IMG/VR virus record: IMGVR_UViG_3300037424_001220
Coordinates: 3,109-67,108 of that record
Source of the DNA: a virus
Lineage: Duplodnaviria; Caudoviricetes
Length of the DNA stretch: 64,000 bases
Direction: 5' to 3' (one strand)
Positions 5,671 to 55,037 of the stretch are shown here, piece by piece (position 1 is the stretch's first letter; every line of letters begins with the position of its first letter). The translations under genes were made by a program, and so were the position numbers. The notes under the pieces are model-generated. The model saw only the letters and a program-made list of their open reading frames with translations, was not told where the DNA came from and did not search any database.

Positions 5671-6765
5671 CTAGAAGGCCATCTCGAAGACCTTGCCCGC
5701 CGCACGCTCGGCTCGCACGCGCTCGTCAGCGTACGGAATCGACTTGGCGTGCTCGCTCAGGCCGTTGCCCATTCCCCAAACACTGGTCGGCGAGCCGTAC
5801 CAGTCCTCGTGCTTCTCGGCGAGGAGGTACCCCGCCTCGAGCGTCTTGCGGGGCACGCCGAGCGATCGCATGCCGAAGAGCTTGTCGAGCAGTTCGTCCT
5901 TGTCCGCGGCGATCTCGTGCGCCATGCACCGCTTGATCTTCGCTTCGTCCTCACTGGCCGACGCCGTCGCGTACGCCTTCAGCTCGACGCGGAGTTGCGA
6001 GAACGCCCGGTCGTCCGCGTTGCCCGTGTGACGAATGCGCAACTCGCGCACTCCCTCGACGCCCCACACGTTGTGGTTGCCACAGATGTAGGAGTAGAGG
6101 AACGTGAGAAGCCAGAACGCCTTGTCGCCGACCTCGGAGTTGGCCACCATGAACCCACGGCTGAGTCCGCCACCGGGCAACGACTCGAAGACGCGGCGGT
6201 CGTTGTCCACGAGGAACGCGAAGACGTCGTGGTCGCTGGCGTACAGGCCACGCGTCTTACCACCGGACACCAGATCCGTTTCCGGCGCGGGCTGCCATTC
6301 CTTCGGGAGATTCATGAGCCGCTGCGTGATGTCGCGGTCCCAGATGCGAGAGTACCCGGTGCCCGTGAAGGCGCGGATGGCCGTGGAGCCGTTGACGTCG
6401 AGCAGGAGCTTCGCGCTGTCCAGGTCCTTGCCGCGTTCGGCGAGACCGTAGTTGATGTTCTGCGCGGCCAACTCGGCCGGGAGGTCACGCATGTAGTCCG
6501 TGGGCGCACCGATGCGAGCGCAGAGCTGGCCGAAGCTCCAGTGCGTGAAGGAGGCGGGAGTGTTGGTCTTGCCGAGCAAGCGGATGTTGCCGCGGTCGGC
6601 CTCGACGCGGAGGTCGCTGTAGCGAACGTAGTTGCTCTCGCAAGCGCGACGCGTACGGGCATCGACGGCGGAGTGGAGCTCGGCGATGGAACCGAACGAC
6701 TGATCGGCCGGACGCGAAGCCCACTGGTTCGAAGCCTGCGAGAGAACGGAGTTCGTGGTGGTCAT
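5671..6765 (-). CDS. DUF932-family protein
   Basis: FTHWSFGQLCARIGAP, YSRIWD, GLYASDHDVFAFLVD, NSEVG, ICGNH motifs; AGGAG upstream. Confidence 0.75.
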   Translation of the reverse strand: MTTTNSVLSQASNQWASRPADQSFGSIAELHSAVDARTRRACESNYVRYSDLRVEADRGNIRLLGKTNTPASFTHWSFGQLCARIGAPTDYMRDLPAELAAQNINYGLAERGKDLDSAKLLLDVNGSTAIRAFTGTGYSRIWDRDITQRLMNLPKEWQPAPETDLVSGGKTRGLYASDHDVFAFLVDNDRRVFESLPGGGLSRGFMVANSEVGDKAFWLLTFLYSYICGNHNVWGVEGVRELRIRHTGNADDRAFSQLRVELKAYATASASEDEAKIKRCMAHEIAADKDELLDKLFGMRSLGVPRKTLEAGYLLAEKHEDWYGSPTSVWGMGNGLSEHAKSIPYADERVRAERAAGKVFEMAF

Positions 6766-6908
6766 GGGTTCTACTCTCCTGGATAGCCGGCGTACCGAGA
6801 CGAGTGGATTCTCATCTGGGCAAACCAGCGGTTAAGAGGCAACTCGCCGCCTCCCCTCCCTCCGCCACATACAAAAGGGTGTGACGGAGGAAGGGCAGCC
6901 GATGCGAA

Positions 6909-11452: not shown

Positions 11453-11862
11453 AGCAGAGCATCGTCTTCGAGTTGGATCAGGTGCGTTTCACCTTGGTCC
11501 TCGAGAAGTTGAACGATGGACGGTACTGTACCTCGGCTGTTCATTCCAAGTTTGGCCGTGGAGCTACCAAGACTCACGCCACTTACAAGGCTGCGTATCG
11601 ATGCTGGACTAGAATGGAGGCCGATGCGCTGAAGCTTGGATGGCCACGACGAGTGATCTCGCAGATCGATCTCCGTCCCCCTTCGCCCATGTTGCTCACG
11701 GAGGACGGTCGCAAGCTCTTCAGGGACTCTCGGACCGGTGAGTATCACGAGGACATCTCCTCCTCACGTCCCCTCCTTCTTGCTCGCGATCCTGTGGTGG
11801 CACAGCCTGCTGACGAGGAGGATCACTTCTTGATTGAGAGTCTGCCAAGGCCGACGCGTTGA
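11449..11862 (+). CDS. WGR-like domain protein
   Basis: RFTLVLEK...FGRGATKTH...ALKLGW; aligns with 10600-10992. Confidence 0.5.
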   Translation: MKQSIVFELDQVRFTLVLEKLNDGRYCTSAVHSKFGRGATKTHATYKAAYRCWTRMEADALKLGWPRRVISQIDLRPPSPMLLTEDGRKLFRDSRTGEYHEDISSSRPLLLARDPVVAQPADEEDHFLIESLPRPTR

Positions 11863-13685
11863 GACAAGGCAATCTCTTCGAGCATGTCTCGCAGGACCGC
11901 CCGGGCTGGCGTCCTCCGGACCCACCGAGTCTACGTGGCCGCTGCAAACGTGTCTTTCTAGACTTCGAGACGACCGGACTGCGGTGGTGGGGCGGTGACC
12001 GTCCTGTAGGACTGGCCGCTGCTACGCCGGATGGACACACGTGGTATCTACCCGTGGGACATGCCGGTGGGAACCTTGACGAGGAGTCCGTTCGTCGATG
12101 GATGCGGCAAGAGCTTCCAGGAATGGAAGTAGGCTTCTTCAACGCTCCCTTTGACGTGAACGTCGCCTACTCATGGGGTGTAGATCTCGAAGCTCTTGGT
12201 TGCCGTCTGTTCGACATTGGCAACTACGCTGCGCTTCTCGAGGAGGATCGATGGGCTAGCTCCTCGCTCGACTCGGTGTCCCTCCACTACTTGAACCACG
12301 GCAAACTCAGGACCGGGCTGAACATGGCCCGCCTGAAGGACTACCATGCCGCGGATGTGGCTGATTACGCGGAGAGGGACGTTCTGTTACTGACGGAGCT
12401 CGATCCGATCTTCAGAGGTAAGATTCAGGAACAAGAGCTCAATGTTGTTGCCGAACTAGAGAACGATCTCATCCCCGTTACGTGTTCCATGGTGCGCGAG
12501 GGAGTGCCCGTAGACGAGGAGAAGCTCCACAGATGGATAGCGCAGTCCGAGAAGGACTTCGTAACCTGCCTGTGGGAATTACACCGCATGACCGGGATGA
12601 AAGTGGCTGTGGGATCACACGCCTCACTCATCGAGCTCTTTAGGCTACTGAAGGTTCCTCCTCCAATCGGTGAGCCTGGATCACCGGAGGAAGGACGAAT
12701 CACCTTCAAGAAGGATCTGCTTCGGCACTATGACCATCCGGTTCTTAAGATACTCTACAAGGCCCGGATGCTCGCCAGCTTGCGTAGCAAATACCTCCTT
12801 CGCTATGCTGAGGAGGTCCGGCGCAATGGGCTCCTTCGCTACTCGCTACACCAAATGCGCGTGGACGACGATGGTGGCACCATCTCGGGACGGTACTCTT
12901 GTACGTCCTTCGGCACTGATCCTGATGAAGGGATCAATATCCAACAGGTTGCGGGCAAGAAGCATGCTCGCTACGTTGCCGATGATGCAGCGCTCTCCGG
13001 GTATAAGGTGCGTGAGCTATTCTTGCCTGCCGTTGGACAACTATCGTTAGATGCGGATGCGGACCAGATTGAGTACCGGTTCTTCGCACACTACGCACAG
13101 CCTCCTACCGTGATGGAGGCTTACCGAAAGGATCCACATACCGATTTCCACAATGTGGTGTGGGAGTTATTGAAACAGGTGAAGGGTGACATCACCCGTG
13201 ACCTGGTCAAGGATTGTAACTTTGCGGCACTCTACGGTGCTGGTGTGGACAAGTGGTCCCGCATGATGCAGATCTCCGAGAAGGAGGCTCGGAAGGTCTA
13301 CCACACATACCACTCACAGTTCCCCGAAGCCAAGAAGCTCCTTGAGCGGGCTTCCAACACCGCACGGAAGCGGGGCTTTGTGCGTACCATTCTCGGTCGT
13401 AGAGCGCGGTTCCCACGTAAGACACAACTCTACTCGGCGCTGAACCGTGTGATCCAGGGCTCGGCGGCCGACGAGATGAAGACCAAACTTCTAGCGTTGC
13501 ACAAGGCACGACGCGACACGGGCTTTAGGCTGCGCTTCACGGTTCATGACGAGGTCGTTGGTGACGTTCCGGATCTTGCCGCTAAGGAGCGTGTGAGGAC
13601 CATCCTCAACACGCAGATGTTGAACACCCGGGTGCCCCTCTTCTGGAAGGTGGGCACCGGGCCAAACTGGAAGGAGTGTAAGTGA
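11859..13685 (+). CDS. polA: DNA polymerase, family A (3'-5' exonuclease plus polymerase, no 5' nuclease)
   Basis: ExoI LDFETTG, ExoII FNAPFD, ExoIII YAERD; motif A DADQIEYR, motif B RDLVKDCNFAALYG, motif C VHDE. Confidence 0.95.
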   Translation: MRQGNLFEHVSQDRPGWRPPDPPSLRGRCKRVFLDFETTGLRWWGGDRPVGLAAATPDGHTWYLPVGHAGGNLDEESVRRWMRQELPGMEVGFFNAPFDVNVAYSWGVDLEALGCRLFDIGNYAALLEEDRWASSSLDSVSLHYLNHGKLRTGLNMARLKDYHAADVADYAERDVLLLTELDPIFRGKIQEQELNVVAELENDLIPVTCSMVREGVPVDEEKLHRWIAQSEKDFVTCLWELHRMTGMKVAVGSHASLIELFRLLKVPPPIGEPGSPEEGRITFKKDLLRHYDHPVLKILYKARMLASLRSKYLLRYAEEVRRNGLLRYSLHQMRVDDDGGTISGRYSCTSFGTDPDEGINIQQVAGKKHARYVADDAALSGYKVRELFLPAVGQLSLDADADQIEYRFFAHYAQPPTVMEAYRKDPHTDFHNVVWELLKQVKGDITRDLVKDCNFAALYGAGVDKWSRMMQISEKEARKVYHTYHSQFPEAKKLLERASNTARKRGFVRTILGRRARFPRKTQLYSALNRVIQGSAADEMKTKLLALHKARRDTGFRLRFTVHDEVVGDVPDLAAKERVRTILNTQMLNTRVPLFWKVGTGPNWKECK

Positions 13686-14248
13686 ACACGATCACAACGT
13701 ATACAGGCCGGGAGGTGAATCCTCTCGAGATGCAACCCGGTGACGTTTGCATCGAGGATCTCGCTCACGCTCTCGCGCTCTGCAACAGATTCGCGGGGCA
13801 CTCGCGCTTTCCGATCAATGTGGCACAGCACAGCATCCTTGTTTCACTGCTCTGCGACAGCAACCACGACCATGCTCTAGCTGGACTGCTCCACGACGGG
13901 AGTGAGGCGTACCTGGGCGACGTGACCAAGTGGCTGAAGAAATCCCCGGAGATGGAAGGCTATCGGCGTGCTGAGCACCGAGCGCAGAACTGCGTCTACG
14001 TGGCTTTCAATCTTCAGCCGTACTCGCGGGACACCGTCGAGTGGGCTGATCAGCTTGCGGTAAGATACGAGTTCGAGCTCGCCTTTGGCCGGGGACAGAA
14101 CGTCGAAGGGTATGGTGCCCCGAGCCATGGGGAGCGGGCTCGGCTATACCGTATGAGTGTCGAGAATCCACAACTGTGGAGGCCTTACATGACGTGGCAG
14201 GAATCTGAGATGGCATTCCTGCATCGCTTCAGAGACCTCACTCAGTGA
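13682..14248 (+). CDS. HD-domain 5'-deoxynucleotidase (YfbR-like)
   Basis: IEDLAHAL...NRFAGH...VAQHS...GLLHDGSEAYLGDV. Confidence 0.85.
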   Translation: MNTITTYTGREVNPLEMQPGDVCIEDLAHALALCNRFAGHSRFPINVAQHSILVSLLCDSNHDHALAGLLHDGSEAYLGDVTKWLKKSPEMEGYRRAEHRAQNCVYVAFNLQPYSRDTVEWADQLAVRYEFELAFGRGQNVEGYGAPSHGERARLYRMSVENPQLWRPYMTWQESEMAFLHRFRDLTQ

Positions 14249-14724
14249 GCCGTCCGATCATCGTCGGCGAAGGGCCAAGCCCTAGGTTCCTAAGAACACC
14301 GAACATCCATCCGCTCTTCGGCCCTCCAACCCGGGTGATCTGTGACCTCGCTGGTTTCAACGCCACGTCTGCGCGGCCGTTGAAGGCAAACGTACAACGC
14401 TACGTTTGGCTCAGGGGTCGTGCTCGTCTTGAGAACCTGTGCGCTCGGAAGTGGGACTTGAGGGAGGCGGAGTCGAAGGCAACACGTCTTCTCTACGAGG
14501 CTCCCTTCACCACGTTCATTCTTCTTGGTCGCAAGGTTGCCCGTGCCTTCGGCCGAAGGGATCAGCCGTTCTTTGAGCGACATCATCGCTCCCTGATGGG
14601 ACACGCTATCATCGTGATCCCACACCCCAGCGGCCTTAATCGACTCTATAACGAACCGGACATTCGCGCGAGGGCGGTCGGCATCCTAGCCGATTTTTTA
14701 TCCTTGCGTTCCACCAAAAAATAG
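14245..14724 (+). CDS. uracil-DNA glycosylase-like fold protein
   Basis: IIVGEGPS, ILLGRKVA, IPHPSGLNR motifs of the UDG superfamily. Confidence 0.65.
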   Translation: MSRPIIVGEGPSPRFLRTPNIHPLFGPPTRVICDLAGFNATSARPLKANVQRYVWLRGRARLENLCARKWDLREAESKATRLLYEAPFTTFILLGRKVARAFGRRDQPFFERHHRSLMGHAIIVIPHPSGLNRLYNEPDIRARAVGILADFLSLRSTKK

Positions 14725-14733
14725 TGCTATAAA
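14704..14733 (+). promoter_or_regulatory. possible sigma70-type promoter for the DNA modification cluster
   Basis: TTGCGT-18 nt-TATAAA with TG at the extended -10 position; local AT-rich patch. Confidence 0.45.
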
Positions 14734-14742
14734 GAGGTTCCA

Positions 14743-15633
14743 ATGTTGCAAACAGGCATGCCCAGCAAGGTCCTGGAGAGTTCCTTCTTCGAGACCGCCC
14801 GGGAACGCTATCAGATGATGCTCCGACGACAGGAGCGTTCCGGACCTGGATGGGGACCGGAGGGTTCTTGGTGGACCGAGGATCCGATCCTCGCCTCGTG
14901 GCGCTTCTGCAACGTGCACCGCGAGGACGACAGAACCACGGTCTGGTTCCGGGACAACATTCGTTCCAAGCTCCATGGCCTAAAGGTAGTTCAGGCCACC
15001 GTGGCGTTCCGCTGGTTCAATCGCATCGAGACTGGCGAGATCATCAAGGACATGCTCCTTGAGCCAAAGAGCTGGAACTGGCAGAAGGCACACAAACGTC
15101 TTCATGAGCAGCTCCGCTCTCGTGGTCACGCCGTGGTCACGGGTGCTTACATCATCAACGGGATGCCCGGTTACGCGAAACTCGAGGGAGTGCTGGCATG
15201 CATCGATCGAGCACTCCCTGTCCTCGACCGGCTCTGGCCGCAACTCGAGGGAGCTAACCTCGAGACCGCGCACACGCTCCTTCACCGCAACATCGTCGGC
15301 TTCGGCTCCTTCATGGCTTACGAGGTGGTCTCGGATCTTCGTTGGACCGATGCTCTCACCCCAGCCGATGCGCTCACGTGGGCCGTACCCGGGCCGGGCT
15401 GTGCTCGGGGTCTTGGTCGCGTGATGGCCAACGATCCCAACTTCTTCGGGAACTCCCTCGACGACCGCAAGACCATGTTCGAGCTGATGCATCACCTTCT
15501 GTACGTGTCCAGGACCGAGTGGCCGCGTGAGTGGCGTCGGTGGGAGATGCGCGAGGTCGAACATTGGGCTTGCGAGTTCGACAAGTACGAACGGGCTCGC
15601 GGCGGTTCTCGTCTCAAGAGGAGATACCCGTGA
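14743..15633 (+). CDS. aGPT-pyrophosphorylase / 5-hmdU DNA kinase helical-domain family protein (thymine hypermodification)
   Basis: WRFCNVHREDDRTT, FRWFNRIETG, GFGSFMAYEVVSDL, PGPGCARGL, EVEHWACEFDKY; neighbours a dUMP hydroxymethylase-like gene. Confidence 0.75.
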   Translation: MLQTGMPSKVLESSFFETARERYQMMLRRQERSGPGWGPEGSWWTEDPILASWRFCNVHREDDRTTVWFRDNIRSKLHGLKVVQATVAFRWFNRIETGEIIKDMLLEPKSWNWQKAHKRLHEQLRSRGHAVVTGAYIINGMPGYAKLEGVLACIDRALPVLDRLWPQLEGANLETAHTLLHRNIVGFGSFMAYEVVSDLRWTDALTPADALTWAVPGPGCARGLGRVMANDPNFFGNSLDDRKTMFELMHHLLYVSRTEWPREWRRWEMREVEHWACEFDKYERARGGSRLKRRYP

Positions 15634-16031
15634 AGGCTGAGAAGCGGGACCAGTTCATCGGGATCTACGTCACGCGTCAGGTGCGCCGTCTTCTTCAAGA
15701 GGAGGCCACCAAGCGGGGCGTCTCGATGTCGGTCTTGGCCTACAACTACATCGCCGATGGAATGGGCACCAAACGTGTTGATCTCATACCACGTAACGGT
15801 TCCCGGCCTGGGCGAAAGATGGCCATTCGTGGTCGTCTCTCTCCCATACTGCGCGCGGCCATCATCACGAGCCCGTTCACCAGAGCGGCGTTGGCCATGC
15901 GTGTTGGCCTGAGCAATAGGATGCTCACTCACATGGTTCGAGGAGAGGACGCTCCTCTGACAGAAAGCACCTTGGCCCGTCTTCGTATTCTGGCCAAGAT
16001 CTTGAAGCACACGGGAGAGGTTACGGAATGA
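15630..16031 (+). CDS. ribbon-helix-helix plus helix-turn-helix regulator
   Basis: FIGIYVTRQVRRLLQEEATKRGVSMSVLAYNYI (RHH); TRAALAMRVGLSNRMLTHMVRG (HTH). Confidence 0.6.
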   Translation: MKAEKRDQFIGIYVTRQVRRLLQEEATKRGVSMSVLAYNYIADGMGTKRVDLIPRNGSRPGRKMAIRGRLSPILRAAIITSPFTRAALAMRVGLSNRMLTHMVRGEDAPLTESTLARLRILAKILKHTGEVTE

Positions 16032-16819
16032 GGATCGTGATTCCAACGCGAGGACGCACTGGTCAACAACTCACGCTGAACGGCTCAGCATCGAGCTCTG
16101 GTCTACCAAAAGAGCTCTATCCCAACGTCACCATCGTCTGCCCGGCGGGTGAGGCCCGGTATCACACGACGCGTGTCCAGGTGGTGGCCCAGCCGGACGC
16201 TACGTGGACCATCGCACGTAAGCGTCGGTGGATTCTCGAGGAGCTGTGCGCCAAGGACGAGAAGGTGGTGATGCTCGATGACGATCTTCGCTTCTGCGTC
16301 CGCCGCGAGGACAATCCGATGTACTTCCGTAGCGCGAAGCCGGAAGACGTTCTTCGTGCTTTCAAAGAGCTCGAGGAGCAGCTCTCACCTCAGGTGCCGC
16401 ATGCAGGATTCGCCGCACGGCAGATGAGCATCAACCCGGCGGCACAACGCGGTGGATGGCAGACGGCCAAGCGCATGATGTACGTACTTGGCTACCACGT
16501 GCCAACGGTGCTAGCCAACGCGGAGCTCGGTCGGATCGAGACGCGAGAAGACTTCGATCTCACGCTTCAGCTCCTCGTGAAGGGCTTCCCCAACGCGGTG
16601 AGCTATACCTATCAGGTCGATCAGAAGATCGATCGTCCTGGTGGATGCACCGGCGAACGCACGTGGGAGCGCAGCAACGCTGACGCCCTGAAGCTCAAGG
16701 AGTACTTCCCCGAGTTCGTCAAGGTCATCGAGAAGAAGTACCGGGACAACACTCGGTTGGAGGTTCAGGTCCAGTGGCAAAAAATCCTTCGCGCCCACGT
16801 CAACAGCCCCCGTGGCTAG
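16028..16819 (+). CDS. TET/JBP-associated (GREB1/JGT-like) GT-A glycosyltransferase
   Basis: IVIPTRGR, VMLDDD, REDFDLTLQLLVKG, PGGC motifs. Confidence 0.75.
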   Translation: MRIVIPTRGRTGQQLTLNGSASSSGLPKELYPNVTIVCPAGEARYHTTRVQVVAQPDATWTIARKRRWILEELCAKDEKVVMLDDDLRFCVRREDNPMYFRSAKPEDVLRAFKELEEQLSPQVPHAGFAARQMSINPAAQRGGWQTAKRMMYVLGYHVPTVLANAELGRIETREDFDLTLQLLVKGFPNAVSYTYQVDQKIDRPGGCTGERTWERSNADALKLKEYFPEFVKVIEKKYRDNTRLEVQVQWQKILRAHVNSPRG

Positions 16820-17538
16820 GACCCCGGCTTGGCCGGGGTACAGGCTCCATCATCGCGAAGAACGGTGTGATCCTGAAGATCACGGATCGCGACGAGCTCT
16901 CTCTTCTCACCGGAACCACGGATGCGTTCGTTCCGGTGAACACATGGTGGCGCACCGGGCCGAACACCGTTGAACTGGAGATGCCTCGACTGATCGAGGC
17001 TACGGCAGCAGATGATCCCTATCCTCCGCTGAAGCACGGTCTCGAGACGTTGGCTCAGTTCCTTTGGTCACAGGACGACCTGACGCCACATCTTGGATGG
17101 CGTGAGAAGCTCCTGTCCCATCTCATCCGCATACGATGTACCTCAGGTGTTCGACACCTAGTCGAGAAGGATCTGCCCGAGGCACCAGATCGACAGTGCC
17201 GCATCCACGGTGATGCTACGCTGGCCAACCTGCTCTTCGACTCACAGCGCATGCGGTGGGTCTGGTGCGATCCACTACGGCGTCCCTACATACCCGGGGA
17301 TCCACTGGTTGACCTTGGCAAGATGTTCCAGTCATGCTGGGGCTACGAGCGGGTACTCATCGAGGACGCGACACCATCCCTAGACGAACAGATGGCCGAC
17401 CGCTTGGCCAACATCGCGGGGCTGAACTACGACGACGCGATGCGTTGGTGTCACGTGCACATCGTGCGGCTCCTGCCGTACCAGACTCGCCACGTGGCGG
17501 ATCGCTTCGTGGAGGTACTGACTGATGTGGGTCTTTGA
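16774..17538 (+). CDS. APH/choline kinase-like phosphotransferase
   Basis: IHGDATLANLLF, WCDP, DPLVDLGKMFQS; exact start uncertain. Confidence 0.75.
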   Translation: MAKNPSRPRQQPPWLGPRLGRGTGSIIAKNGVILKITDRDELSLLTGTTDAFVPVNTWWRTGPNTVELEMPRLIEATAADDPYPPLKHGLETLAQFLWSQDDLTPHLGWREKLLSHLIRIRCTSGVRHLVEKDLPEAPDRQCRIHGDATLANLLFDSQRMRWVWCDPLRRPYIPGDPLVDLGKMFQSCWGYERVLIEDATPSLDEQMADRLANIAGLNYDDAMRWCHVHIVRLLPYQTRHVADRFVEVLTDVGL

Positions 17539-17995
17539 TCTCGACGGTACGTTGCTTGACACCCGGCGGGCCGTGGAGGAGGCGTATCTCGCCGTCGGCG
17601 TGACGATGCCCCCGGGTGCTTGGGGAAAGCCTTGGGAGGAGTGGCTGAAGGAGGAGGACTTTCACCGCCGTAAGAACATCGTCTATCCCTTTGCCCTGGC
17701 CATCTACGGGAAGCGCCTCCCCCTACTGGCCCATGCTCTACGTCTACAAGCATGGGTCATCACGGGTGCGTCACATGAGGCGGCCAACGCAGTCAAGGAG
17801 GTGATGGAGCCTAAGCTTCGCATCGTTGTCACGGGAGCCACTCTTGCGCAGAAGGCCACGTGGCTCGATCGCCTGAAGCCTGGGGCCTACGTGGACGATA
17901 ACGCTGATGCACGTCTGTACATTTTTCAACGTACACAGTGGAGAGTCCTTTCTCCCGAAGAGGCTATCGAGCAGCTCGAGGAGGCGACCAGATGA
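17525..17995 (+). CDS. HAD-family phosphatase
   Basis: VFDLDGTLLDT motif I; ITG; YVDDN motif IV. Confidence 0.85.
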   Translation: MWVFDLDGTLLDTRRAVEEAYLAVGVTMPPGAWGKPWEEWLKEEDFHRRKNIVYPFALAIYGKRLPLLAHALRLQAWVITGASHEAANAVKEVMEPKLRIVVTGATLAQKATWLDRLKPGAYVDDNADARLYIFQRTQWRVLSPEEAIEQLEEATR

Positions 17996-18651
17996 GAGCG
18001 GTGGTCCTTGCCGCCGGCAACGGAGAACGATTCAAGTCCGTCTCTCCGCTGCCGAAGCCTTTCATTCCAATCCATCGCCCAGGTTATGGCACGGCGATGA
18101 TGATCGAGCACGTGCTGAACACCATCCCCTTCGGCATAGAGCGATACATGGCGGTGCCGGAGATGGCGATGCTCTACGCTCCTCTAGCCCGGTACATCCC
18201 TATTCGCGAGACGCGCAGTCCCGTTCACACGCTTCAGCAGGTGCTGGAACGAATGGAGGATGACTCGTCCCTTCTCCTGCTCGACTGCGACACCTTGGTC
18301 GACGAACGGGACCTCGACCGTCTGGTCTATCACGTCATGTACAACGGGTTCCCATGTGCGGTCGCCGTGACATCGGACGAGACGGACGAAAACATGAGCC
18401 GTGTCGACACGGTACCGCATCCAACGCGGTTCGTGGAGAAGCAGATGATCTCCAGATGGGGCATCGTCAGTGCCCGGGCGTTCAACAGCACGTCACGGCT
18501 CCGCCAGCTTCTTCAGTCCCAACCCGACGGCCCTCTCACTCCGCTGCTCGGCCTCTATGGTTCCTGCTACGCTTACATGATCCGGCGTCGTTGGGTGGAC
18601 TGGGGTACGCCAGAACGGCTCGTGGCATCGGGAGCGGAAGTGGCACGATGA
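17992..18651 (+). CDS. sugar-phosphate nucleotidyltransferase
   Basis: AVVLAAGNGERF...PKPFIPI; LLLDCD. Confidence 0.85.
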   Translation: MRAVVLAAGNGERFKSVSPLPKPFIPIHRPGYGTAMMIEHVLNTIPFGIERYMAVPEMAMLYAPLARYIPIRETRSPVHTLQQVLERMEDDSSLLLLDCDTLVDERDLDRLVYHVMYNGFPCAVAVTSDETDENMSRVDTVPHPTRFVEKQMISRWGIVSARAFNSTSRLRQLLQSQPDGPLTPLLGLYGSCYAYMIRRRWVDWGTPERLVASGAEVAR

Positions 18652-19655
18652 TCACTCTTCTCTACCAGAGCGCGTGGCCTCTAGGAGGTGGCACGTCTTT
18701 TACGGCGCATCTCTGTGCTACTTTTGCCACGAACTACGTTCCGTTCCGCGTGCTGCGTATCGCTGATCGAACCGAGCGTCGGCCTCGACAGCTAGCGGCG
18801 TACGGCTTTGAGTACCGGAACGTGGAACTCTCGGAGGTATTGCGTATCAACGATGGACCGATCCTGCATACGATCGGGGACCCGAAGCTGCCTGAAGAGA
18901 CCGCGAAGTCCCTAGCAGCCAAGTCGAACTTCTGGTCCACGTGCTTCGACTCCAACGAGCTGAAACTCTTCCCGCATTGGAAGTACTTCAATCGTAAGAG
19001 AGTGCTTCTCATCGGCGAGAGCAGCTTCGAGTACATGCCACTTGGCCACCTCGTGCCGATGCCGTACGTCAGACGTTATCCCGAGGAAACTGTATTGACG
19101 CCGCTTCCGCGTCGTTTCGGATGCAGCATCGCTCGCATCGGTAGCTCGAAGAACAGCGAGGTGCTGATGGAGGCCAATCAGCAACTGAGGGAGCAGAACC
19201 GTGAGATTGCGCTCCTCGGTCAGTGGGACCGGATGTGGCATTGGAGTAGGATCGCGAAGCGGTTCCCCGAGTACCCATACCCCGAGGCCACGGGTAAGGG
19301 TTACCCCAGACGGCTTGGCACGGCTCCGGAGATCTGTATCGATTACAGCCTGATGTTCGACATGTCGATCTTCGTGGCCGATGGAGGTCGTCCGCAGTAC
19401 TCCCTTCTCGAAGCGCTCGACGCCGGTGCGGTGCCGGTCATTACGCAGCAGTGGGCCAGCTACCCCGGTCCGTCGAAGGACTGGTCGATCGTCGTGAAGG
19501 CGAACCAGCAAGCGATTGTGGCTCGTTTCGGTGTACCCCGAGTCGTTGAGGACGAGGAGGTTCTTCTCAAGCGCCGTCTCGGTCAGACGTATCTTCGCTT
19601 CACACATGATTCGGCCAACGTGGCCCAAGAGTACGTAGACGTTCTCAACCGATAG
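18648..19655 (+). CDS. glycosyltransferase, GT-B fold-like
   Basis: N-terminal GGGTSFTAHL; C-terminal QYSLLEALDAGAVPVI. Confidence 0.65.
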   Translation: MITLLYQSAWPLGGGTSFTAHLCATFATNYVPFRVLRIADRTERRPRQLAAYGFEYRNVELSEVLRINDGPILHTIGDPKLPEETAKSLAAKSNFWSTCFDSNELKLFPHWKYFNRKRVLLIGESSFEYMPLGHLVPMPYVRRYPEETVLTPLPRRFGCSIARIGSSKNSEVLMEANQQLREQNREIALLGQWDRMWHWSRIAKRFPEYPYPEATGKGYPRRLGTAPEICIDYSLMFDMSIFVADGGRPQYSLLEALDAGAVPVITQQWASYPGPSKDWSIVVKANQQAIVARFGVPRVVEDEEVLLKRRLGQTYLRFTHDSANVAQEYVDVLNR

Positions 19656-19666
19656 GAGGGAAACCC

Positions 19667-20716
19667 GTGCGCGTGATCACTACCCGCAACGTTCAACAAG
19701 CTCTACCCCAGGCCGTTCGGCTGCTGGAGGAGGAAGGCATCTCCCGAAACAGCCGTAACGGCCCCGTGCTGGTCGCGCCGTGGCCAGTGACTACAGTGTA
19801 CGAGCGGCCGGAGGAGCGTGTCCTCTTCTGGCCACAGCGAGACGCTAACCCGGCGCTACATCTGTACGAGTCCTTGTGGATGCTGGCCGGACGCGAGGAT
19901 CTGGCTCCGCTGCTGAACTACGCGAAGCAGTTCGCCGAGTACTCAGACGACGGCCTTGCGCTCTGGGGAGCGTACGGGTACCGCTGGCGCGAGATGTTCC
20001 ATTGCGATCAGCTTTCCGTCATCGCGATGGAACTCCGTAAGAACCACGACGATCGTAGGTGTGTCATACAGATGTGGGACACCAGACTCGATCTTGCACG
20101 GCTCGGTCGTGACGTTCCATGCAACGTGATGGCGACGGTGCAGATCTCCGGAACCGGGGCGTTGGATCTCACGGTGTTCAACCGCTCCAATGACATCGTG
20201 TGGGGATGCTACGGTGCGAACGCCGTGCACTTCTCCTTTCTCCAGGAGTACCTCGCCCTTCTCGTCGGAGTTCCCATGGGCCGGTACACACAGGTCAGCG
20301 TCAACTGGCACGCCTATCTCAACACGTTCGAGCAGGTGCGGAAGATTCCCCACGGTGGAGGTAGGCTCTGGGATCCGAATTGGACCGAGAACGATCCTTA
20401 CGAGCAGAGGCTCGTACGGCATCTCTCGATGCGTTGTCTCGAGGATGAGATCACAGCTAACAGCGTGATCGACCATCTTCTAGCCGAAGAGGCACGTGGG
20501 TTCGATCGGCCGTATGAGCCCTATGATCGGTGGGACGATCTGGTTTACAGAGTCCTACACGCTCATCGTCTTTGGCGAACTCTACCCACGCCTGAGCGGT
20601 ACACCAGAGCACTGGCAGAGATGGAGGTCAACTCGATTCAGGGCTGGGATTGGACCTTGGCCATGCGCGAGTGGCTGACGCGGCGTTACACGAAGTGGCA
20701 GGAGAAGCAGTCATGA
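19667..20716 (+). CDS. thymidylate synthase-family enzyme, probable dUMP hydroxymethylase
   Basis: ESLWMLAG, YGYRW, DVPCN, RSND, GANAVHFS (Asn at the dUMP-specificity position), NWHAY. Confidence 0.85.
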   Translation: MRVITTRNVQQALPQAVRLLEEEGISRNSRNGPVLVAPWPVTTVYERPEERVLFWPQRDANPALHLYESLWMLAGREDLAPLLNYAKQFAEYSDDGLALWGAYGYRWREMFHCDQLSVIAMELRKNHDDRRCVIQMWDTRLDLARLGRDVPCNVMATVQISGTGALDLTVFNRSNDIVWGCYGANAVHFSFLQEYLALLVGVPMGRYTQVSVNWHAYLNTFEQVRKIPHGGGRLWDPNWTENDPYEQRLVRHLSMRCLEDEITANSVIDHLLAEEARGFDRPYEPYDRWDDLVYRVLHAHRLWRTLPTPERYTRALAEMEVNSIQGWDWTLAMREWLTRRYTKWQEKQS

Positions 20717-21177
20717 GTTGTAGTCGGTGCAACCAGCCGCACGCAGGCTCCTGCGACCCCAAGGACATCATGCGTCTGGACGCAGCGCGACGCGAGGTCA
20801 GAGAAGCCGTCAATCACCCATCGCACTACGGTGGCGATACTCCCTTCGAGCACGTCAAGGTCGCCGGGGAGATGGGGTGGGTGGCGAACGCGTTCATCTA
20901 CAACGCGACCAAGTACCTCTGGCGTCTCGGCAAGAAGGGTAAGCGGCTCGAAGATCTGCGCAAGGCAATCTGGTATCTCCAGCGCGAGGAGCAGCGACTC
21001 GCGTTCATCGAGGCTCTGGAGAAGAGCCCACTCCTGAACTCCAACGTCATCAGCAATGACGATGCTGCGTTCCTCGCTCGCCGCGATCGTCGCGAGGCGA
21101 CGTGCCTGGAGTTGGGCTGCGACACCATTAGCACTCCAGCAACCCACTCCGTCTACTGTCGGTTTTACGCGCCATGA
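20713..21177 (+). CDS. DUF3310 domain protein
   Basis: VNHPSHY...NATKYLWRLGKKG...EDLRKAIWYL. Confidence 0.85.
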   Translation: MSCSRCNQPHAGSCDPKDIMRLDAARREVREAVNHPSHYGGDTPFEHVKVAGEMGWVANAFIYNATKYLWRLGKKGKRLEDLRKAIWYLQREEQRLAFIEALEKSPLLNSNVISNDDAAFLARRDRREATCLELGCDTISTPATHSVYCRFYAP

Positions 21178-23188: not shown

Positions 23189-23376
23189 TGGCCATGCTGA
23201 TCCTCTCGGACAACTACTGTCGGGACACCGTGGACGATAAGCTCATCATCAAGAATCTCACGCCTACTGAGGCGGAGAGTGCAGCGGACCACCTCAACAG
23301 TCTCGAGGACGGCGACGGCCCTTACTTCTATCGCGTCGTCGATGATGATTACACCCTCCACAAGTGGGAGCCATGA
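23188..23376 (+). CDS. hypothetical protein
   Basis: 62 aa; coupled start/stop. Confidence 0.55.
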   Translation: MAMLILSDNYCRDTVDDKLIIKNLTPTEAESAADHLNSLEDGDGPYFYRVVDDDYTLHKWEP

Positions 23377-23521
23377 TGAAGTGGTATCAGTGCTGGCCGA
23401 AGCGCAGTGCGTGGGAGATGACGTCCGAGGAGATCCGAGAAGGATGGGATCGCCTCGGACAGCGGCTGACCCTAGTCCTTTTGGTTCTGACGATCATCCT
23501 ATCCGCTGTCGGGTGGCTTCG

Positions 23522-23845
23522 ATGAGGCCTGAGCCTCTGCTCATCGAGACAATGCATCCAGTCGTCCGGGACTACATCCTTTGGGCGCTCGCGACGTTTC
23601 CCGACGAGACCCTGGAGCAACAAGCCATCCATCTCGTCAAAGAGACGCGAGAGCTTTGCGCCGACTCCACGCCCGAGGAGATGGCTGACGTGGCGATGCT
23701 CTCACTGCTGATCTTCTTCCGCACACAGAAACTCGCCCAGCGTCGCGGGGTCAACCTGCAAGAAGCCTTCGCCAAGAAGCTCGCCGTCAACAAGAAGCGT
23801 ACCTGGATCCGCTCCAAGGACGGAGACTACAACCATGAGCGATGA
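23522..23845 (+). CDS. MazG-like dATP/dGTP pyrophosphohydrolase (DUF550-like)
   Basis: HLVKE..E...EEMADV...KKLAVNKKRTW...DGDYNH. Confidence 0.7.
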   Translation: MRPEPLLIETMHPVVRDYILWALATFPDETLEQQAIHLVKETRELCADSTPEEMADVAMLSLLIFFRTQKLAQRRGVNLQEAFAKKLAVNKKRTWIRSKDGDYNHER

Positions 23846-46862: not shown

Positions 46863-47285
46863 ATGGCACTTGTTGACATCATCCGGAACGCGGTTCATAC
46901 CGCGGACTTGGTCACCAAGTCCGTCCAGGAACCTGTGAGCTTCGAGGCTTGGACCGGACAGACCCCTCTCGGTGCTGCAACCTATGCTCCCGTGTTGCTG
47001 CCGAAGCCGAAGGCACTCGTTGAGCACAAGGCACATCTTCGTAAGCTGTCCGATGGCCGCTTCGTTGAGGTGAAGACGAAGCTGACGTTCCTTGAGGTGA
47101 TCGCAAATACTACGCCGCTCAGTCCGCTTTCTCCCCGTGACAATCCGGTTGATCCTCGGGACAAGTTCACCACGGCAAACGGCGTGACGGGACCGATCGT
47201 TGATGTTACGGGGATGCAGGATGCCGGCAAGGGACGTCCTTTCCTCCTCGAGGTCTTTCTCGGTGGCACCAGCGGCACTCGATGA
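46863..47285 (+). CDS. head closure protein (putative)
   Basis: Position and size after the adaptor gene. Confidence 0.6.
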   Translation: MALVDIIRNAVHTADLVTKSVQEPVSFEAWTGQTPLGAATYAPVLLPKPKALVEHKAHLRKLSDGRFVEVKTKLTFLEVIANTTPLSPLSPRDNPVDPRDKFTTANGVTGPIVDVTGMQDAGKGRPFLLEVFLGGTSGTR

Positions 47286-47935
47286 AACTCTCCATCCTCT
47301 GCGTAACCCGGGCTCAGCGTCGCATTCTACCTTTAGTGGAACGGATGCTGGACTTGTCGTTTCGCAACGTGGAATGGGAGTGTGTGCTCGCGGCTGACGG
47401 GAAGGATGCGTTTGTTGAACTGGAGTACCTGAGTCATTTCGCTCGGGTCATTCAGGTGGAGTCCGCTGGCTACGTCGAGAGCGTCTTGGACGAGGCGATC
47501 GGAGCCTGTCGAGGGGAGTACGTTCTTCGGCTCGACGATGATGAGAGTGTTAGTCCAACGATGGTGCGGTGGTTGGACCGTTCGGCCTTCATCGCGGAGC
47601 CCCACTGGTGCTTCTCTCGTGCTTGGTTGTGGCAAGACCCTGGGCACTTTCTCCGCATGGAGCCCTTCTGGCCCGATTACCAAACGCGTCTCAGTCTTAA
47701 GTCTTGGTCCGGGGGTCGCAGTCTTGTTCACCAGGGCAGTCCTCACGGCTTGGGGCATGTGGCTCCTGCGGCCATCGAGCACCACAAACTGTTGCTCTGG
47801 TCCTACAGAGAGCGTTTGGAGCACGTAGCCCATTACGATCGATTGAGCTCAGGGGCTGGTCAGGCTTCTCGAGAATTCTATCTTCCGGAGGAGCTTCCGA
47901 GTCTGGTGATCAACTCCTGGGCGGTGATGCGATGA
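47282..47935 (+). CDS. glycosyltransferase family 2-like
   Basis: KLSILCVT, ADG, GEYVLRLDDDE, PDYQTRL. Confidence 0.8.
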   Translation: MKLSILCVTRAQRRILPLVERMLDLSFRNVEWECVLAADGKDAFVELEYLSHFARVIQVESAGYVESVLDEAIGACRGEYVLRLDDDESVSPTMVRWLDRSAFIAEPHWCFSRAWLWQDPGHFLRMEPFWPDYQTRLSLKSWSGGRSLVHQGSPHGLGHVAPAAIEHHKLLLWSYRERLEHVAHYDRLSSGAGQASREFYLPEELPSLVINSWAVMR

Positions 47936-53571: not shown

Positions 53572-53802
53572 ATGCCGAGGACGCGACGACGGCGGGCCAA
53601 CGATCGGAGACGAGAGGCCGAGCAGCGCCGCATTGCAGCTGAAGCTCTTGATCGTGCCCGCCGTGTGGAGAAGGAAGATCTCGGTCGATACGTCAAGGCT
53701 GTCTATCGTTCTCGCGCGGGGGAAACTATTCACGCACGTGATGGCCGCGCCTACATCGTGCAATCGGATGGCTCACTCGTCAGAAAGGAAGGGATGCTGT
53801 GA
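53572..53802 (+). CDS. small basic hypothetical protein
   Basis: Arg-rich N-terminus; stop overlaps the next GTG. Confidence 0.45.
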   Translation: MPRTRRRRANDRRREAEQRRIAAEALDRARRVEKEDLGRYVKAVYRSRAGETIHARDGRAYIVQSDGSLVRKEGML

Positions 53803-55037
53803 CTCCGTACAACCCTACGTTTGATGAGACCGGGATTCGGATCAGTAACGGGAGGCGGCTCCTCTGGATCGGTGACGCCGTGGCCTCAACCGGATTCGCG
53901 CGTTGCACTCATCAGACACTCGATGTACTGCGCAAGACCTGGGACGTGGCTGTTCTCGGACTCAACTACCTGGGTGATCCGCACCGGTATCCGTACCCTA
54001 TCTACCCGGGTTGGCCCGGCGGTGACGGCTTCGGCTTGGGTCGAGTCGAGCACGTGATAGCCAGCGTGAAGCCGGACCTCGTAGTTATCCAGAACGATCC
54101 GTGGAACATCCCCGAGTACATGAAGCGCATCAAGGACATTCCGGTCGTAGCCTCGATGCCGTTGGATGGCAAGAACTGTCAGAGCAAGTGGCTGAACGGT
54201 CTGGCATTGGCCATCTTCTGGACGGAGTTCGGGCTCTTGGAGGCCCGCTCAGGTGGCTATACCGGGCCGGCAGCCGTGGTTCCGCTCGGTGTGGATCTCG
54301 AGATGTACAAGCCCGTTGACCAACTAGAAGCACGGCGTAGGGTAGGACTTCCTGAGGAACTGCTCGACAAGTTCATCATCGGCAACGTGAACCGCAACCA
54401 GCCACGCAAGCGGTTGGACCTGACGATCGAGTACTTCGCGGCGTTCACAGCCCGGGCACAGGCCGAGGACGCTTATCTTTTCCTGTTCGTCGCGCCGACC
54501 GGCGAGATGAGCTACGACGTCGAGCAGTTGATGCACTACTATGGCTTTAAAGGAGCCGGCAAGCGTCTTATCCTGGTTCAGCCCGAGATGGGCTACGGCC
54601 AACGGGAGGAGACGCTATCGTCCATCTACTCGTGCTTCGACGTACAACTCTCTACGACTCAGGGAGAAGGATGGGGCCTGACCACGATGGAGGGGATGGC
54701 CTGTGGGGTGCCTCAGATCTTCCCTGACTGGTCGGCTCTTGGTGAGTGGGCCAAGCCAGCGGGGATGGCCATACCGTGCTACGACACGGCGGTGACCTCG
54801 AACAATCGGATCAACATCCTTGGTGGAATTCCTGATCGGACGCAGACCGTGGAGGCACTTCATAACTGCTACGCCTCTTGGAAGCTGAAGAAGGCCGCCG
54901 ATCACTACGATGTTGCCTCTGTTAGGACCGTTCTTGAACAGCATCGGGAGCTCGGGATCCAACTCGTTGCTGATCCGCGGTACCGGTGGTCCTCGATTGG
55001 TGCATCCTTCGAGATGGCACTTGACACGGTGAGCTAG
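53799..55037 (+). CDS. glycosyltransferase family 4-like (GT-B)
   Basis: STGFAR, GNVNRNQPRKRLD, STTQGEGWGLTTMEGMACGVPQI. Confidence 0.9.
   Translation: MTPYNPTFDETGIRISNGRRLLWIGDAVASTGFARCTHQTLDVLRKTWDVAVLGLNYLGDPHRYPYPIYPGWPGGDGFGLGRVEHVIASVKPDLVVIQNDPWNIPEYMKRIKDIPVVASMPLDGKNCQSKWLNGLALAIFWTEFGLLEARSGGYTGPAAVVPLGVDLEMYKPVDQLEARRRVGLPEELLDKFIIGNVNRNQPRKRLDLTIEYFAAFTARAQAEDAYLFLFVAPTGEMSYDVEQLMHYYGFKGAGKRLILVQPEMGYGQREETLSSIYSCFDVQLSTTQGEGWGLTTMEGMACGVPQIFPDWSALGEWAKPAGMAIPCYDTAVTSNNRINILGGIPDRTQTVEALHNCYASWKLKKAADHYDVASVRTVLEQHRELGIQLVADPRYRWSSIGASFEMALDTVS

Follow-up and report, generated by a model that had tools for sequence, protein, structure and literature searches.

The closest described counterparts of the gene cluster examined here are phage systems in which a sugar is activated and then moved to a hydroxylated pyrimidine in DNA. 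As described in PMC13326640, AfhE of phage HY126 fuses a nucleotidyltransferase with an APH-like kinase that adds a phosphate to C1 of arabinose 5-phosphate, the HAD phosphatase AfhF removes the 5-phosphate, and AfhE then makes UDP-arabinose for the DNA arabinosyltransferases. RB69 (gp51-53) and DLP3 (gp81-82) have the same system, with a kinase domain that matches choline kinase and APH and a transferase domain that matches MurU and LicC (PMC13326640). In contig 53 of Pyle et al., a HAD-APH protein, a cytidylyltransferase and a glycosyltransferase of the GT-B fold were all needed in Escherichia coli for placing mono- or di-heptose on 5-hydroxymethylcytosine (5hmC, or hmC) (bioRxiv 10.1101/2023.12.21.572611; Cell Rep 2024). 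Here we analysed bases 3109-67108 of the 67,108-bp IMG/VR virus record IMGVR_UViG_3300037424_001220, a genome rated 93% complete; this stretch of 64,000 nucleotides is called the window below. It carries an operon with a thymidylate synthase homolog, three predicted sugar-activating enzymes (a kinase, a HAD phosphatase and a nucleotidyltransferase), two glycosyltransferases and a protein of the family PF18723. We consider it probable that this operon replaces thymine, wholly or partly, with 5-hydroxymethyluracil (5-hmU, or hmU) and then O-glycosylates it with a sugar activated by the phage itself.

The window resembles the AfhE/AfhF system in its predicted anomeric kinase of the APH/choline-kinase fold, its HAD phosphatase predicted to act on a sugar bisphosphate and its MurU/RmlA-like nucleotidyltransferase, in a GT-B enzyme whose target would be a hydroxylated pyrimidine that a thymidylate synthase homolog supplies as a mononucleotide, and in the position of these genes, which all adjoin the DNA polymerase gene. 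However, the base is predicted to be 5-hmU in the window (Asn177 and Asp169 in the synthase), whereas in the AfhE/AfhF system it is 5-hydroxycytosine (N177D and D169N). The three activities of the window are also separate small proteins without a kinase-transferase fusion, an arabinose-5-phosphate isomerase is missing from the window, only the kinase core shows sequence similarity, and the window adds a glycosyltransferase of the GT-A fold and the PF18723 protein. With contig 53 the window shares, as far as a comparison by description only can tell, the same three sugar-activating activities and a GT-B enzyme, but in contig 53 a methyltransferase and TET produce the 5hmC once the DNA has been replicated, whereas the acceptor in the window would be made before replication by a dUMP hydroxymethylase. 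Base J of kinetoplastids, the product of JBP and JGT, is a glycosylated 5-hmU in trypanosomes. As in base J and in the glucosyl-hmC of T4, the hydroxymethyl group of a DNA pyrimidine would carry the sugar in O-linkage; unlike in base J, the hmU of the window would be made from dUMP before replication and not by oxidation of thymine, and unlike in base J and T4, the donor sugar is predicted to be made by the phage instead of being host UDP-glucose.

On the thymidine side, phages M6 and PaMx11 (PMC8989533) share with the window the dUMP hydroxymethylase (46% identity to PaMx11 gp51), the PF18723 protein (44% to PaMx11 gp50), an HD-domain protein and the DNA polymerase PolA, and the backbone of the window belongs to or lies near Mesyanzhinovviridae, as theirs does. 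In contrast, their P-loop kinase of 5-hydroxymethyldeoxyuridine (5-hmdU) in DNA, their PF18724 transferase and their tailoring enzymes (pyridoxal phosphate (PLP), radical SAM, FAD and acetyltransferase proteins) are absent here and glycosyltransferases are present instead. The only cultured phage that we found to share the core is the Alphaproteobacteria phage PhiJL001 (AY576273), in which gp17-gp25 include an open reading frame (ORF) resembling uracil-DNA glycosylase (UDG), the PF18723 protein gp19 (45%), the TAGT-family GT-A protein gp22 (29%), the synthase gp24 (54%) and an HD protein. PhiJL001 differs in being without the kinase, the HAD phosphatase, the nucleotidyltransferase and the GT-B enzyme, and it has the Nmad5 protein gp23 instead. 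No analysis of DNA modification in PhiJL001 was found in the literature consulted.

The nearest relatives of the window are three phage loci with 53-54% identity (L004, L005 and L006), in which the genes follow the order HD, P-loop kinase, PF18723, a putative regulator with ribbon-helix-helix (RHH) and helix-turn-helix (HTH) parts, synthase and DUF3310, and then the next two genes. Judged by this gene order, the window therefore carries a clean insertion of five genes at 16028-19655, between the RHH-HTH gene and the synthase, which consists of the TAGT GT-A, the small kinase, the HAD phosphatase, the nucleotidyltransferase and the GT-B, while the UDG-like gene fills the slot of the P-loop kinase. 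The GC content of the insertion (0.596) is no different from that of its flanks. The HD homologs share the same position in the three relatives, and RHH-HTH homologs occupy the same slot.

The choice of base can be read from the synthase, which we aligned with E. coli ThyA and phage homologs (residue numbers are those of E. coli). The catalytic Cys146 is present, and Pro145 and Cys146 are invariant in the alignment. Asn177 is kept within a GAN motif, likewise in PaMx11, PhiJL001 and a further metagenomic phage fragment (L122), and Asp169 is kept as well. The motif D-V-P-C places an Asp at the position of Leu143, as in PaMx11 and PhiJL001, where the position was assigned by counting back from Cys146 and MAFFT puts a gap. 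By the rule given in PMC13326640, Asn177 goes with dUMP rather than dCMP as substrate; an acidic or small residue replacing Leu143 admits water and leads to a hydroxymethyl product, and 5-hydroxy-dCMP synthases of the RB69 gp48 type are marked by D169N and N177D (PMC13326640). Because of Asn177 and the Asp at the Leu143 position, the synthase is predicted to be a dUMP hydroxymethylase, and since Asp169 is retained it is without the D169N mark of the 5-hydroxy-dCMP synthases. A 5-hydroxycytosine or hmC pathway was considered and rejected, as Asp169 and Asn177 of the active site are both retained. The DNA of PaMx11 carries a 5-hmdU derivative, with the modification built on 5-hmdU (PMC8989533). 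No dCMP deaminase was found in the 93%-complete genome.

The second part of the proposal is the activation of the sugar. The HGDxTxxN and Asp-Pro (Asp166-Pro) motifs of the kinase are invariant, and its AlphaFold2 (AF2) model has the APH/choline-kinase fold. Its family counts 22 close metagenomic members and over 1,000 distant ones, mostly stand-alone proteins of about 250 aa. The alignment of its family profile with RB69 gp52 covers the catalytic core and the shared stretch D..K......GY[ED] that follows. In the HAD phosphatase the motifs DLDGT, TGAS, K110 and YxD are invariant, and its gene follows the kinase in all five other contexts (5/5); its family profile matches only the N-terminal motif of sugar phosphatases and is silent on the substrate. 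The nucleotidyltransferase keeps the GxGxR loop and the Lys, and its family profile matches RmlA best (2.6e-9), followed by GlmU, UGPase, HddC (a heptose enzyme) and MurU, with LicC at 4e-5; among its structural neighbours in the ESM Atlas are viral fusions with APH and with HAD domains. We thus see a kinase predicted to phosphorylate a sugar phosphate at its anomeric carbon (C1) and a HAD phosphatase predicted to remove the distal phosphate of the resulting sugar bisphosphate. With no sugar-phosphate isomerase encoded in the genome, the phage must take the sugar phosphate it starts from out of its host.

The trio of kinase, HAD phosphatase and nucleotidyltransferase recurs in other phages, in contexts that we found through the contigs of kinase and GT-B homologs. 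The fragment L122 has the same eight genes in another order (TAGT, kinase, HAD, nucleotidyltransferase, PF18723, synthase, HD and GT-B), and the trio is found in four further phage contexts, three of them near a synthase homolog (L119, L120 and L123) and a fourth (L124) in which the fetched stretch shows no synthase. The synthases associated with the trio in L119 (1204-2052) and L123 (15082-15954) have Asp at both the Asn177 and the Leu143 position. Together these residues form the signature of a dCMP hydroxymethylase, so the enzymes look specific for dCMP and the cassette seems to serve hmC as well as hmU pathways. Because the trio recurs near synthases that differ in residue 177, it behaves as a portable cassette of sugar activation for DNA glycosylation, whichever the pyrimidine. 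It was present in none of 115 IMG/VR loci (0/115) fetched with PF18723 and the synthase as queries. Neither the kinase nor the nucleotidyltransferase had a tblastn match at E 0.01 among 50,697 GenBank phages, and megablast of the cluster gave none either. Scans of IMG/VR with single-protein patterns of the GT-A and of the kinase gave no relatives, and phmmer of the kinase, the GT-B and the UDG-like protein against PDB sequences gave matches at chance level only.

TAGT is a family of DNA-base glycosyltransferases, and this phage family is related to JGT. The DDD motif (D84, D85 and D86) of the GT-A protein is invariant in 33 homologs, and the protein is predicted to act on 5-hmU in DNA. The 335-aa GT-B protein gave no Pfam match by sequence, and in Foldseek its model matches GT4-type enzymes (7qsg at 3.4e-8, PimA, BshA and MshA) and also the alpha-glucosyltransferase (AGT) of T4 (1y6f/1ya6, TMq 0.64-0.68), so that by fold it resembles a DNA enzyme. 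Homologs of the GT-B gene lie directly beside PF18723 and the synthase, without a GT-A, in the loci L051 and L100. Since other phages pair PF18723 with only one or only the other of these glycosyltransferases, there are two options, namely that both act on 5-hmU, comparable to the two T4 enzymes (alpha and beta), or that they build a disaccharide. The family profiles of the GT-A and of PF18723 found no solved relative in the PDB. Elsewhere in the window, the region of head-tail and lysis genes contains two more glycosyltransferase genes, a weak GT2 match at 47282-47935 (PF00535, E 3e-4) and a GT4 gene at 53799-55037 (PF00534, PF13692 and PF20706 'GT4 in conflict systems').

The PF18723 match spans residues 14-286 of the 296-aa protein, which by its similarity to PaMx11 gp50 is probably the ortholog of that protein. 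In a control scan with hidden Markov models (HMMs), PaMx11 gp46 was assigned to PF18724 (1.6e-27), gp49 to P-loop families and gp50 to PF18723. Of these, gp46 is a proven glycine:DNA transferase and gp49 a proven P-loop kinase (PMC8989533). The 296-aa protein had no match to PF18724, the family of amino acid:DNA transferases (AADT). A preliminary description of the window had called it a member of the aGPT-PPase/5-hmdU kinase family and had left it between that side and the amino acid:DNA transferases; its gene (14743-15633) now falls on the aGPT-Pplase1/HMUDK side, as PF18723 and not PF18724, so that membership in the superfamily stands, in the form of a helix-hairpin-helix aGPT-Pplase, and the kinase itself does not. 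The same description reported neither a PLP decarboxylase nor a second amino acid:DNA transferase, which agrees with our search of the 93%-complete genome: no PLP enzyme and no PF18724 was found anywhere in it, and the P-loop 5-hmdU kinase (homolog of PaMx11 gp49) and PF18748 are absent as well. With no homolog of the P-loop kinase, PF18748 or PF18724, the route in which a phosphate is followed by an amino acid is therefore absent, and the phospho-linked sugar that had been offered as an option finds no support, as no base kinase or phosphotransferase was found. On the same contig as the relative L005, a weak PF18724 gene (L127, 1-659) adjoins the polymerase, far from the pair of PF18723 and P-loop kinase; hypermodification genes can therefore be dispersed in this lineage.

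What PF18723 keeps company with was counted in the 115 loci, which were searched with the proteins of the window, PaMx11 proteins and HMMs built for this analysis. The census comprised the 71 loci in which PF18723 is flanked by at least 3 kb on either side, and a partner was counted within 4 kb. A P-loop kinase was near PF18723 in 34 of the 71 loci (12 of these also with the transferase) and the TAGT GT-A, adjoining PF18723 and the synthase, in 30, and GT-A and P-loop kinase were together in none (0/71). A homolog of the 335-aa GT-B was near PF18723 in two loci, only a UDG-like gene in one, and no such partner in four. PF18723 always accompanies a dUMP hydroxymethylase and, in the loci with a group-transfer partner, exactly one of several types of such enzyme. 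The family name HMUDK_hel points to a fused or neighbouring P-loop 5-hmdU DNA kinase; the window has none, and the 30 GT-A loci are likewise without it. In a quick maximum-likelihood version of the PF18723 tree (IQ-TREE) the type of partner switches at least 6 to 8 times, and the well-supported clade that includes the window has 14 loci, 11 of the kinase type and 2 of the glycosyltransferase type. In addition, SP10 has a fusion of PF18723 with a kinase (PMC5889632, PMC8989533). Because of the gene neighbourhood and the SP10 fusion, we propose that PF18723 is a shared module which recognises or flips hmU for an adjoining group-transfer enzyme.

In the mechanism that we suggest, the synthase homolog would turn dUMP into 5-hm-dUMP, as its active-site signature indicates. 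The DUF3310 protein, possibly a kinase for 5-hm-dUMP given that PHROGs labels DUF3310 families 'nucleotide kinase', could together with host kinases bring this to the triphosphate, the HD phosphatase would trim rival deoxynucleoside monophosphates (dNMPs), presumably dTMP or another unwanted one, and PolA would incorporate the product. By analogy with AfhE/AfhF and with the heptose cassette of HAD-APH and cytidylyltransferase, the APH-fold kinase would phosphorylate a host sugar phosphate at C1, the HAD phosphatase would remove the distal phosphate, and the nucleotidyltransferase would form the nucleoside diphosphate (NDP) sugar. After replication, the GT-A and the GT-B would move the sugar to the hydroxyl of 5-hmU, either at separate sites or one after the other to give a disaccharide, and PF18723 would recognise or flip the hmU base for the adjoining group-transfer enzyme. 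Such a modification would serve to shield the DNA from nucleases of the host. The preliminary description had proposed hmU and a self-made sugar on DNA, and each step now finds independent computational support: the active-site signature fits the dUMP-type synthase that it named as the source of hmU, the two DNA-type glycosyltransferases are both present as a TAGT GT-A and a T4-AGT-like GT-B, and the logic of NDP-sugar synthesis that it saw in kinase, HAD phosphatase and nucleotidyltransferase has experimental phage precedents in AfhE/AfhF and contig 53. A more specific version, for which our confidence is low, is that PF18723 is a general subunit that recognises 5-hmU or presents the base, for which kinase, GT-A and GT-B are interchangeable partners, and that the product is an undescribed thymidine derivative in which a non-glucose sugar (pentofuranose or heptose) is O-linked to 5-hmU, possibly as a disaccharide made by two unrelated glycosyltransferases.

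The kinase and the nucleotidyltransferase could instead form a LicA/LicC-like pair that makes a cytidine diphosphate (CDP) alcohol of choline, ethanolamine or the like, with the final group phospho-linked to DNA or to its sugar in place of a second sugar. VIA-align does rank choline and ethanolamine kinases first (3dxq, Z 16.0; LicA 4r77, Z 15.4), and the transferase belongs to NTP_transf_3, the family that includes LicC. However, choline kinases are matched as well by the RB69 kinase domain, a proven arabinose-5-phosphate kinase (PMC13326640 Table 1), so such matches do not discriminate, and the profile of the transferase favours RmlA over LicC (2.6e-9 versus 4e-5). The Pfam and NCBIfam scans of the cluster genes gave no LicD-type enzyme or CDP-alcohol phosphotransferase, in whose place the cluster holds two glycosyltransferases, and the CDP-alcohol route has no obvious place for the HAD phosphatase, which makes it, in our estimate, quite unlikely. 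It is also unlikely that the sugar cassette and one or both of the glycosyltransferases serve an acceptor other than DNA, such as a virion protein or a polymer of the host surface, with the DNA left as bare 5-hmU or glucosylated only from host UDP-glucose. Although the GT-B fold alone names no acceptor, and the two glycosyltransferases among the head-tail and lysis genes would suit such a role, the cassette is translationally coupled within an operon of replication and nucleotide genes, and the same genes accompany a synthase homolog (in L122 also PF18723) in unrelated phage backbones. Homologs of both glycosyltransferases adjoin PF18723 and the synthase in other phages, and TAGT is a family that acts on DNA bases.

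A cluster that is partly inactive, in which the synthase gives dTMP or unmodified 5-hm-dUMP only and PF18723 is the relic of a lost kinase pathway, seems very improbable to us. The catalytic motifs are intact in every gene, the frames are open, coupled and provided with ribosome-binding sites, and PF18723 with a GT-A and without the kinase recurs in 30 loci, whereas the thought of a relic comes from the nearest relatives, which use the P-loop kinase that is missing here. None of the three alternatives fits the whole pattern as well as a 5-hmU that is glycosylated with a phage-activated sugar. Still, several points weigh against this interpretation. The best VIA-align matches of the kinase are choline kinases (Z 16.0-14), ahead of the sugar kinases, with maltokinase, glucosamine kinase and methylthioribose kinase near Z 13. 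The match of its family profile to RB69 gp52 is modest (hhalign probability 60.7%, E 8.2e-5, 73 columns), and the HAD phosphatase and the nucleotidyltransferase have no BLAST similarity to RB69 gp51 or gp53. A sugar-phosphate isomerase (SIS, SIS_2) was not found in the genome, which leaves the substrate undefined. The role of PF18723 as an adaptor is drawn from gene neighbourhood only, and the kinase and transferase of M6 were active in vitro in the absence of gp55, the PF18723 protein of M6 (PMC8989533). The two glycosyltransferases of the structural module could also use the phage NDP-sugar. Finally, only one sediment metagenome has yielded the phage, which is known from its genes alone. The one DNA sequencing run that holds the cassette is a sediment metagenome, which is probably the source of the record, and no RNA run is listed as holding it.

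The operon consists of 12 tightly packed genes on the plus strand, from PolA (11859) through DUF3310 (21177), which were assigned with HMMs from Pfam, PHROGs (phrog_ families) and NCBIfam (Table 1). Of its 11 junctions, eight are overlaps of 4 to 46 nt, the others are gaps of 11 and 18 nt, the stop of PolA overlaps the start of HD, and a GGAG-like ribosome-binding site precedes nearly all of the 12 starts. The preliminary description had called the cluster genes mostly coupled, and the short overlaps and the 11- and 18-nt gaps confirm the translational coupling. All 11 genes that it listed were found on the plus strand at or near their positions and their assignments hold, with four starts corrected: GTG 15630 for RHH-HTH (with a GTGA overlap and the Shine-Dalgarno sequence AAGAGGAGA upstream), ATG 17992 for the nucleotidyltransferase, ATG 18648 for the GT-B, and ATG 20713 for DUF3310, which has an ATGA overlap with the synthase. 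The 133-aa RHH-HTH-like protein had no HMM match, and its reading as a regulator follows the sequence pattern only. Downstream, in the same replication module, a dATP/dGTP pyrophosphohydrolase domain is found at window positions 23279-23845 (PF04447, E 6.6e-8).

Table 1. Genes of the operon, with positions in the window (pLDDT, predicted local distance difference test; E, E-value)
Feature	Position	Strand	Evidence or remark
Family A DNA polymerase (PolA)	11859..13685	+	PF00476 E 3.4e-48, phrog_17; first gene of the coupled block
HD-domain deoxynucleoside 5'-monophosphate phosphatase	13682..14248	+	phrog_318 'dNMP phosphatase' E 1.7e-36
Small putative UDG-superfamily protein, 159 aa	14245..14724	+	motifs VGEGPS, PHPSG
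PF18723 HMUDK_hel (former aGPT-Pplase1) helix-hairpin-helix protein, 296 aa	14743..15633	+	Pfam 127 bits, cut-off 25
Putative regulator, 133 aa, RHH-like N-terminal and HTH-like C-terminal part	15630..16031	+	sequence pattern
TAGT-family GT-A glycosyltransferase	16028..16819	+	PF20691 59 bits (cut-off 27.5), phrog_842 E 1.8e-39
Small APH/choline-kinase-fold kinase	16774..17538	+	weak sequence match; AF2 model pLDDT 91
HAD-superfamily phosphatase, small helical cap	17525..17995	+	motifs I-IV invariant in family alignment
Sugar-1-phosphate nucleotidyltransferase (NTP_transf_3)	17992..18651	+	PF12804 E 3e-9
GT-B glycosyltransferase, 335 aa	18648..19655	+	AF2 model pLDDT 83, GT-B fold
Thymidylate synthase homolog, predicted dUMP hydroxymethylase	19667..20716	+	phrog_5131 E 1.7e-109
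DUF3310 protein	20713..21177	+	PF11753 E 6e-10

The UDG-like gene was considered as a partner specific to the glycosyltransferase type and rejected, as another homolog sits elsewhere in the kinase-type relative L005; a further homolog lies upstream of PF18723 in PhiJL001. Motif A (GE-x-P; VGEGPS) and motif B (HPS; PHPSG) are invariant in the family. The protein of the window itself stays below the Pfam cut-off for UDG (18.1 bits, E 0.003, cut-off 24.3), while seven of the eight family members match PF03167 (best 1.5e-6). The source gene caller gave 14245-14724 an 88-aa product. Because three homologs cover 95-100% of the 159-aa reading, the longer ORF with its GTGA overlap is the better call. 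At 6306-6776 of the PhiJL001 locus there is likewise a full-length UDG-like ORF (family HMM, E 1.7e-19), where GenBank has the 66-aa gp17, so that gp17 of the 2004 annotation is probably a mis-called start.

Components of these types, and the logic that joins them, have been published before; it is their combination that is rare. New are the assembly on the thymidine branch, the split of the trio into separate proteins and the alternation of kinase or glycosyltransferase around PF18723. Glycosylated 5-hmU in phages has been predicted in the literature, and a limited literature search gave no chemical demonstration of glycosylated 5-hmU made in this way in a phage. If our interpretation is true, the cytosine-sugar chemistry of T4, RB69 and the metavirome clusters would gain a thymidine branch, in which the phage itself supplies the acceptor base as well as the donor sugar. 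The cassette is compact (3.6 kb) and could supply new enzymes for labelling 5-hmU, and DNA modified by it is expected to resist many restriction enzymes. In addition, the census gives a testable role for PF18723, which is a widespread family.

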